Origin: a phage
DNA length: 392 nucleotides
Sequence record: AF039883.1
Strand: one strand, 5' to 3'
The notes below the pieces were generated by a model. The model made no database searches, was not told the origin of the DNA, and saw only the letters and a list, made by a program, of their open reading frames with translations. The position numbers and the translations under genes are program-made. How positions within the stretch are numbered: position 1 is the stretch's first letter; each line of letters begins with the position of its first letter. Below, piece after piece: positions 1 through 392 of the stretch.

Positions 1-1
1 G

Positions 2-124
2 GTTGATAAATTTGACAGAAAACGTTTACTAGAGGGTATCTACGATAATTCTACATCGATAAATGAATTACTAGAACATGCCCAAATATACGATAAGAGC
101 TGGATGTTAATATGGAGATCATAG
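2..124 (+). CDS. 3' end of an upstream protein-coding gene (5'-truncated by the window edge); hypothetical protein, C-terminal 40 aa ...VDKFDRKRLLEGIYDNSTSINELLEHAQIYDKSWMLIWRS
   Basis: Hand translation of frame 2 is open from position 2 to a TAG stop at 122-124, while the other two + frames hit stops early (TGA at 4-6; TAG at 28-30). The peptide is hydrophilic and protein-like. The only in-frame ATG is at 104-106, so any real gene must start upstream of the window. This ORF is not in the supplied ORF track, presumably because it is short and lacks a start. Confidence 0.45.
   Translation, partial: VDKFDRKRLLEGIYDNSTSINELLEHAQIYDKSWMLIWRS
95..99 (+). promoter_or_regulatory. Possible weak ribosome-binding site (AAGAG) for the 77-aa membrane protein gene
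   Basis: AAGAG at 95-99 is about 12 nt upstream of the ATG at 112; a weaker GGA at 102-104 has a 7-nt spacer. Both are poor matches to AGGAGG, so initiation may depend on coupling to the upstream gene. Confidence 0.25.
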
Positions 125-345
125 TAATTATTTTAGCAGTTATGTTATTTAGTGTAACATTTGTATCATTTGCTATTATGCACAGAGCTAGAGAACTAGC
201 GGAAGATATAATAAAATTACGTGGTGAGTTAGCTGCTCTAAAATTACAGCGTGAGGCTTTAAAGTTGTTTGTGGTTCAGGGTAGCGTAGAACATACAACA
301 GAAGACTTCATCACGTATCTCAAACGTTACATGGGAATTAAATAA
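112..345 (+). CDS. Small (77 aa) predicted single-pass membrane protein with N-terminal transmembrane helix and leucine-rich coiled-coil-like C-terminal region; function unknown
   Basis: ORF from the supplied track, ATG at 112-114 and TAA at 343-345. Residues 2-23 (EIIVIILAVMLFSVTFVSFAIM, nt 115-180) form an uncharged hydrophobic stretch of transmembrane length, followed immediately by basic residues (HRAR). Residues about 25-55 (nt 184-276) carry Leu/Ile at 3-4 residue spacing (I33, L36, L40, L43, L50, F53), consistent with an amphipathic helix or short coiled coil. The ATG at 112 is the first ATG after the in-frame TAA at 94-96; the next in-frame ATG (142) would cut the hydrophobic helix in half. 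A possible weak Shine-Dalgarno AAGAG lies at 95-99. Confidence 0.65.
   Translation: MEIIVIILAVMLFSVTFVSFAIMHRARELAEDIIKLRGELAALKLQREALKLFVVQGSVEHTTEDFITYLKRYMGIK
333..337 (+). promoter_or_regulatory. Putative ribosome-binding site (GGGAA) for the downstream gene starting at 345
   Basis: Purine-rich GGGAA is partly complementary to the 16S anti-SD and has a 7-nt spacer to the ATG at 345. It lies inside the 3' end of the preceding CDS, as is common in coupled genes. Confidence 0.4.
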
Positions 346-392
346 TGGAAACTCTTTTTCTTTTAATGCTCGTAGGTTCTCTGCTAGTTATT
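345..392 (+). CDS. 5' end of a downstream gene (3'-truncated by the window edge); N-terminus METLFLLMLVGSLLVI is hydrophobic, so a putative membrane protein
   Basis: ATG at 345-347 shares its A with the TAA stop of the preceding gene (TAATG). A GGGAA Shine-Dalgarno-like motif at 333-337 sits 7 nt upstream of the ATG. The frame stays open for 16 codons to the window end. The hydrophobic run starts at residue 4 with no basic n-region, which fits a transmembrane helix better than a classic Sec signal peptide. Confidence 0.5.
   Translation, partial: METLFLLMLVGSLLVI

Follow-up and report, generated by a model that had tools for sequence, protein, structure and literature searches.

A conserved 61-residue membrane-anchored leucine-zipper protein, T5.020, is encoded in an early transcription unit of T5-like phages and is not linked to the T5 lysis genes

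The window, by which we mean the whole stretch of 392 nucleotides that was analysed, is bacteriophage T5 DNA. By megablast it is 99.0% identical over 391 nt to NC_005859, positions 12649-13039 on the minus strand, and the phage origin implied when this DNA was first read is borne out by this match to T5. A further 186 T5-like phage records match the window by megablast and no database record is 100% identical to it. Its three open reading frames are T5.022, T5.021 and T5.020 in the RefSeq annotation of T5, and the features are as follows.

1-124, plus strand: 3' end of T5.022 (frame-2 translation; T5 annotation; PHROG 9887 match, E 3.3e-58)
112-345, plus strand: T5.021, complete, 77 aa (translation; DUF7237, E 8.5e-40; PHROG 6021)
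332-335, plus strand: GGGA, the likely Shine-Dalgarno sequence of T5.020 (reading of the sequence; a ribosome-binding site is annotated at the equivalent position of phage Seafire)
345-392, plus strand: first 16 codons of T5.020, or T5p019 (translation; T5 annotation; PHROG 5799 match)

In T5 the T5.022 protein, a member of PHROG 9887, has 96 aa, and the stop of its gene overlaps the T5.021 start by 13 nt. The GGGA is 9 nt upstream of the T5.020 ATG and within the 3' end of T5.021, and the first base of this ATG is also the last base of the TAA that ends the 77-aa upstream ORF at 112-345 (TAATG). This one-base stop/start overlap confirms that the two genes are coupled, as the earlier note had said. 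The right end of the window falls inside the transmembrane (TM) helix of T5.020, whose coordinates in T5 are 12510-12695. The RefSeq product name of T5.020 is 'hypothetical protein', and T5.021 and T5.020 each carry the RefSeq note 'contains single transmembrane domain'. T5.020 is an already annotated T5 gene and its single TM domain is already in the public record.

The 16 visible codons of T5.020 encode the same residues as in T5; the last Ile codon differs synonymously, with ATT here against ATA in T5. Two residues of T5.021 in the window are not those of the T5 reference (window 152-154 and 181-183): I14S falls within the TM helix and R24H at the edge of the membrane. None of the 10 homologues that were aligned has either change. 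The window also has one V to L change in T5.022 relative to T5 (codon at window 71-73). In phages ESCO40 and phiLLS homologues of T5.022 bear the label 'minor tail protein', and the RefSeq record of T5 gives T5.036 (81 aa) as 'major head protein'; both genes are in the early region and both labels look like annotation noise. No RNA feature was found in the window by Rfam at E <= 1, and the only repeats found in it were short and at chance level. An imperfect 17-nt direct repeat lies at window 212-255, TAAAATTACGTGGTGAG / TAAAATTACAGCGTGAG, with the copies 27 nt apart, and its copies code for KLRGE and KLQRE in the zipper of T5.021.

The translation of window 345-392 is METLFLLMLVGSLLVI. These first 16 residues had been described as almost wholly hydrophobic, and they are: their Kyte-Doolittle mean is 2.31, which is above expectation from composition alone. 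Of random open starts of 16 codons with the base composition of the window, about 0.3% reach this value, and among all windows of 16 residues in the 20 annotated proteins of the homologous T5 region the share is 2.2%. The T5.020 ORF is 186 nt (61 aa) in all eight phage-record loci compared, from Tequintavirus and Epseptimavirus, and in pairwise comparisons of these eight loci dN/dS is 0.09-0.25 with dS up to about 1.9. By tblastn T5.020 is present in 432 phage records, of Escherichia, Salmonella, Shigella, Citrobacter and Klebsiella phages. Since dN/dS of 0.09-0.25 denotes purifying selection, the start of T5.020 is a real coding feature and not a chance one. The contrary reading, that no gene is present and that the hydrophobic start is an artefact of a 33.7% GC window in which T-rich codons of AT-rich DNA favour Leu, Phe and Ile, is refuted by this conservation of 61 codons, by the 432 records and by the rarity of equally hydrophobic starts among composition-matched ones, and we give it practically no credence.

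The whole of T5.020 (residues 1-61) aligns with positions 1-61 of the phrog_5799 profile at E 4.4e-36, and the category of PHROG 5799 is 'unknown function'. A word-indexed search of 5.8 billion proteins returned 132 close homologues; the 120 that are listed are 79-100% identical to T5.020 and all but six of them are exactly 61 aa long. When 1.84 billion cluster representatives were searched with a profile HMM, five clusters were obtained for T5.020, all of them T5-like, as either their sequences or the genes around them on their contigs show. The two most divergent metagenomic relatives, P0123 and P0124, have 66 and 68 aa, and their contigs are T5-like with the gene order DUF7237 gene, T5.020 homologue, T5.019 homologue of about 206 aa. 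The position of the gene is conserved in the early regions of T5-like phages, where it follows the DUF7237 gene (or T5.023) and precedes the T5.019 homologue. Because the clusters from the profile search and the gene context are all T5-like, the family is, on this sequence evidence, confined to T5-like phages (Markadamsvirinae). No meaningful family match to T5.020 was found in Pfam, NCBIfam or PADLOC, and its profile gave only coiled-coil noise against PDB (E >= 0.16). In the literature no paper on T5.019, T5.020, T5.021 or T5.022 was found, and the T5.026 paper and a 2026 preprint on pre-early genes do not cover the T5.019-T5.022 genes. The CiPGr genome-reduction paper was set aside as a source on essentiality because its phage, seszw, is a Skatevirus and not T5-like.

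The full T5.020 protein of T5 is METLFLLMLVGSLLVILALLLICHLLNKENLELKCENQILNRELKQYNLAAHKMLDKLENK. The earlier note had proposed to obtain the full-length protein and count its TM helices; it has 61 aa and one TM helix. The TM segment is residues 4-26, and the best 19-residue hydropathy window is 4-22 with a mean of 3.19, so that the N-terminal tail before the helix is nearly absent, consisting of Met-Glu-Thr. By heptad analysis residues 26-58 form an amphipathic leucine-zipper helix of five heptads, with L26, L33, L40, Y47 and M/L54 at the d positions and N30, N37, L44, A51 and L58 at the a positions. N30, L33, N37, L40 and L44 are invariant in the alignment, and N30 and N37 are retained in P0123 and P0124, whose C-terminal ends differ. 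The AlphaFold2 model of T5.020 is one unbroken helix from residue 2 to residue 60 with a mean pLDDT of 89.8. There is no Lys or Arg on the N-terminal side of the TM helix in 113 of 114 homologues of 61 residues; on the C-terminal side there are one to three Lys/Arg within 12 residues of the helix. Since all Lys/Arg of T5.020 are on the C-side and the only charge on the N-side is Glu, the positive-inside rule predicts an N-out/C-in topology with the zipper in the cytoplasm. This prediction is only moderately secure, and the charge bias on the C-side is weak, with a net charge of 0 to -1 over 12 residues.

T5.021 also begins with a TM helix, so the claim that two adjacent genes both encode membrane-inserted proteins holds for the full-length products. 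After its N-terminal TM helix T5.021 has a leucine zipper of four heptads (L29, L36, L43, L50) and then a conserved tail, FVxQG..DFI.YLK.Y..IK. It matches Pfam DUF7237 over its full length with 135.3 bits against a gathering cut-off of 27 (E 8.5e-40), and its dN/dS is mostly 0.1-0.25 with a range of 0.06-0.62. The sequence RRAR comes directly after the TM helix, and the positive-inside bias of T5.021 is stronger than that of T5.020. Paralogy of the two proteins was considered and rejected: the hhalign probability is 3%, and at that sensitivity no homology is detectable. By BLASTP, no match of T5.020 or T5.021 to the holin, to the spanins or to further small membrane proteins of T5 had an E-value under 0.29.

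T5.020 is the third gene in a translationally coupled early unit of four genes, T5.022-021-020-019, whose stops and starts overlap. Just upstream of T5.022, at positions 5774-5802 of the T5 locus (L001), there is a strong sigma-70 promoter of the extended -10 type that is close to consensus (TTGACG-17-TATAAT with TG, 11/12 match), and it coincides with an annotated promoter. Only one further early transcription unit stands between this unit and the left terminal repeat. The early-region gene for gpT5.026, an RNA-polymerase-binding protein, lies 1.5 kb upstream (PMC7472727). In all 12 loci examined T5.019 follows a TM-zipper module of the T5.020 type with a one-base stop/start overlap, and in loci L001, L003-L009 and L010-L012 it is the end of T5.020 itself that meets the start of T5.019. 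T5.021 is found in fewer phage records than T5.020 (357 against 432), and about 75 of the 432 records bearing T5.020 are without detectable T5.021. One of the loci compared, that of phage DT571/2 (L009, 956-2177), has T5.023, T5.020 and T5.019 contiguous with the one-base T5.020/T5.019 link kept, and tblastn found neither T5.021 nor T5.022 there; both of these upstream genes are naturally deleted in this phage. Because DT571/2 has T5.020 without T5.021, the two genes are, to judge from these genomes, not an obligate pair. The T5.019 protein has no match in Pfam, NCBIfam, PADLOC or PDB, it is without a hydrophobic N-terminus, and its AlphaFold2 model is poor (pLDDT 44.9).

Yersinia phage phiR2-01 (L013) has no separate T5.020. 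Its ORF 2426-2662, which encodes a 78-aa DUF7237 member, directly precedes the T5.019 homologue, and the N-half of this protein aligns with the T5.020 profile with an hhalign probability of 67% and 39% identity over 38 columns, in what is a low-complexity TM and coiled-coil segment. The phiR2-01 record annotates this gene, g013, from 2528 only, and so drops the TM helix. A second small phiR2-01 protein, that of the neighbouring g014 (2211-2417), bears an N-terminal half that elsewhere belongs to the DUF7237 proteins of Epseptimavirus (43% identity, E 1e-11). The 78-aa chimera, in which a TM-zipper like that of T5.020 is joined to a DUF7237 tail, and g014 suggest that TM-zipper modules may have been exchanged among these small phage proteins. 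A second adjacent overlapping pair is present in T5, T5.031 (54 aa) and T5.030 (93 aa) at L001 3053-3498, and these proteins have the same kind of plan: a single TM helix with no tail on its N-terminal side and, after it, a charged helical tail. No sequence similarity was found between T5.031/T5.030 and T5.020/T5.021.

T5.020 is an early gene of T5 that codes for a 61-residue TM-zipper protein, lies in a coupled unit, is under purifying selection, is found in T5-like phages only and is unlinked to lysis, and of this we have hardly any doubt. What follows about mechanism is tentative. The zipper tail of T5.020 would be at the cytoplasmic face of the inner membrane, where it most likely drives parallel in-register oligomerisation. 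In zippers of the GCN4 type, conserved Asn at a positions makes the helices pair in parallel and in register, and the conserved Asn at the a positions of T5.020 are the reason for proposing such pairing here. We propose that T5.020 may be a small membrane-anchored coiled-coil adaptor, made early, whose cytoplasmic helix would keep another protein at the inner membrane. That protein would most likely be the product of T5.019, possibly together with T5.021, because T5.019 follows a T5.020-type module in all 12 loci, including the one that lacks T5.021; T5.021 would then be a dispensable second membrane-anchored zipper protein of the T5.022-019 unit. Adjacency and coupling of the genes do not prove a physical interaction between T5.020 and T5.019. 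Identity, architecture and context taken together with the adaptor mechanism make up a statement towards which, as a whole, we lean slightly; in the adaptor mechanism by itself our confidence is low.

The plan of T5.020, a bitopic protein with a TM helix and then a zipper, is common to FtsL/FtsB/DivIC, the i-spanins and p16.7 of Bacillus phage phi29. The phi29 p16.7 protein is an early membrane protein of about 130 aa with an N-terminal TM segment, a coiled coil and a C-terminal DNA-binding domain. By analogy T5.020 would resemble it in being made early and in having an N-terminal anchor and then a dimerising cytoplasmic coiled coil; T5.020, however, ends after the zipper, and the likeness, which is drawn from the description of p16.7, is one of architecture.

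A different role that we consider unlikely is that T5.020 is a membrane protein of superinfection exclusion or counter-defence, which blocks the entry of other phages' DNA or neutralises a membrane-associated host defence. The small T4 proteins Imm and Sp are a precedent of the exclusion type. Such a role would suit an early operon that adjoins the first-step-transfer region, a narrow family specific to one phage lineage, and neighbouring genes that are accessory, being gained, lost or recombined between lineages. T5.020 itself, however, is strongly conserved (61 aa in 8/8 loci, dN/dS about 0.15), unlike typical arms-race genes, it has no match in PADLOC or to another family, and a tail predicted to be cytoplasmic is ill-suited to blocking the entry of DNA in the periplasm.

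The earlier note had raised the possibility of a holin-like lysis module. In this form or in the broader one, in which T5.020, alone or with T5.021, is a small holin, an antiholin or a regulator of lysis timing at the inner membrane, we regard the reading as very improbable. T5 already has its lysis genes, which are annotated as follows.

19931-20344 in T5: T5.040, endolysin
adjoining T5.040, 7.6 kb from T5.020: T5.041, holin, 218 aa, single TM
22518-23245 in T5: T5.044/045, spanin pair

These genes span 19.9-23.2 kb, which is 7.2-10 kb from T5.020 (12.5 kb), and several annotated promoters and terminators lie between. They share the early region and the strand with T5.020, and T5.020 is small and has one TM helix and a charged, K/E-rich hydrophilic C-terminus as holins do. 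One TM helix with a charged tail is, however, too generic a pattern to carry a holin inference, and the other marks of a holin, clustering with endolysin or lysis genes and membership of a holin family by sequence, were not found. It had been suggested to look next to the pair for an endolysin or peptidoglycan hydrolase gene, and there is none; the neighbours are T5.021, T5.022 and T5.019, and T5.020 is transcribed together with T5.022 and T5.019, which are not lysis genes. A homology search with the full protein, also suggested at the time, gave T5-like phage relatives only and no holin. The Pfam holin models had no match at E <= 1 to T5.020 or to 14 homologues, PHROGs places T5.020 in no holin family either, and no similarity was found between T5.020 and T5.041 or the T5 spanins. 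The absence of T5.021 from DT571/2 also argues against a two-gene lysis module. Thus, T5.020 is not linked to the T5 lysis genes. Of the two other membrane functions named in the earlier note, a small membrane effector pair may be what these genes encode, and a transport accessory pair received no support.

Comparison with known lysis proteins leads to the same distinctions. Holins such as T5.041, the single-TM T-type holin of T4 and the small class I/II holins are, like T5.020, small membrane proteins of virulent phages with a charged C-terminal region. T5.020 differs from them in not being beside an endolysin gene, in belonging to no holin family, in being co-transcribed with genes that are not for lysis and, on the predicted topology, in having no periplasmic domain. 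The i-spanins of the Rz type, for example T5.045, share with T5.020 an N-terminal TM helix that is followed by coiled-coil helices. They are, however, about 130-150 aa long and N-in/C-out with a periplasmic coiled coil, and they are paired with the gene for an outer-membrane lipoprotein, whereas T5.020 has 61 aa, no positive N-terminal tail and no lipoprotein partner. T5.021 contains no cysteine and is, therefore, without the lipobox of an o-spanin, and T5.019 has no hydrophobic N-terminus.

It has also been considered that T5.021 and T5.020 mimic the division proteins FtsL, FtsB and DivIC and enter or poison the FtsQLB complex, thereby stopping host division. The shared plan, in which a TM helix is followed directly by a leucine zipper in the products of two adjacent genes, fits this idea, and members of the T5.021 family repeatedly match, below threshold, three FtsL models of NCBIfam and the DivIC model of Pfam, with a best whole-protein E-value of 0.0018. 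T5.021 nevertheless scores far under the cut-offs (FtsL, 15.5 bits where 50 are required; DivIC, 13 where 28.9 are required), T5.020, for all its TM and zipper plan, gives no FtsL/DivIC match and reaches no curated score threshold, and TM and coiled-coil sequences cross-match through composition. The T5.021-family matches are, therefore, probably architectural similarity only. The phage proteins are much shorter than FtsL, FtsB and DivIC and have no C-terminal FtsQ-binding region. Because there is no positively charged N-terminal tail the orientation is predicted to be opposite to that of FtsL/FtsB, and the N-out/C-in prediction would put the phage zippers on the other side of the membrane from the FtsL/FtsB zippers, although the bias in T5.020 is weak. 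On balance, mimicry of the divisome seems to us a far-fetched explanation.

A wider reading joins the exchange of modules to such host proteins. In it, T5.020 and T5.021 would belong to a modular toolkit of membrane-anchored leucine-zipper proteins in which TM-zipper modules and C-terminal tails are swapped between lineages and which might pair with host bitopic zipper proteins such as FtsL/FtsB. The phiR2-01 chimera and the second T5 pair, T5.031/T5.030, point to such a toolkit. We think the reading very doubtful; if it were true, the toolkit and its pairing with host zippers would be a previously undescribed class of early host-takeover effectors.

To return to T5.020 as observed, the appeal of a lysis cassette does not hold, and T5.020, a gene already annotated as hypothetical in a classic model phage, has little significance as it stands. 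It is one of several conserved small inner-membrane proteins that T5-like phages make early in infection. T5-like phages are widely used in biocontrol and therapy, and T5.020 could lead to a component of the host membrane that T5 targets early in infection.
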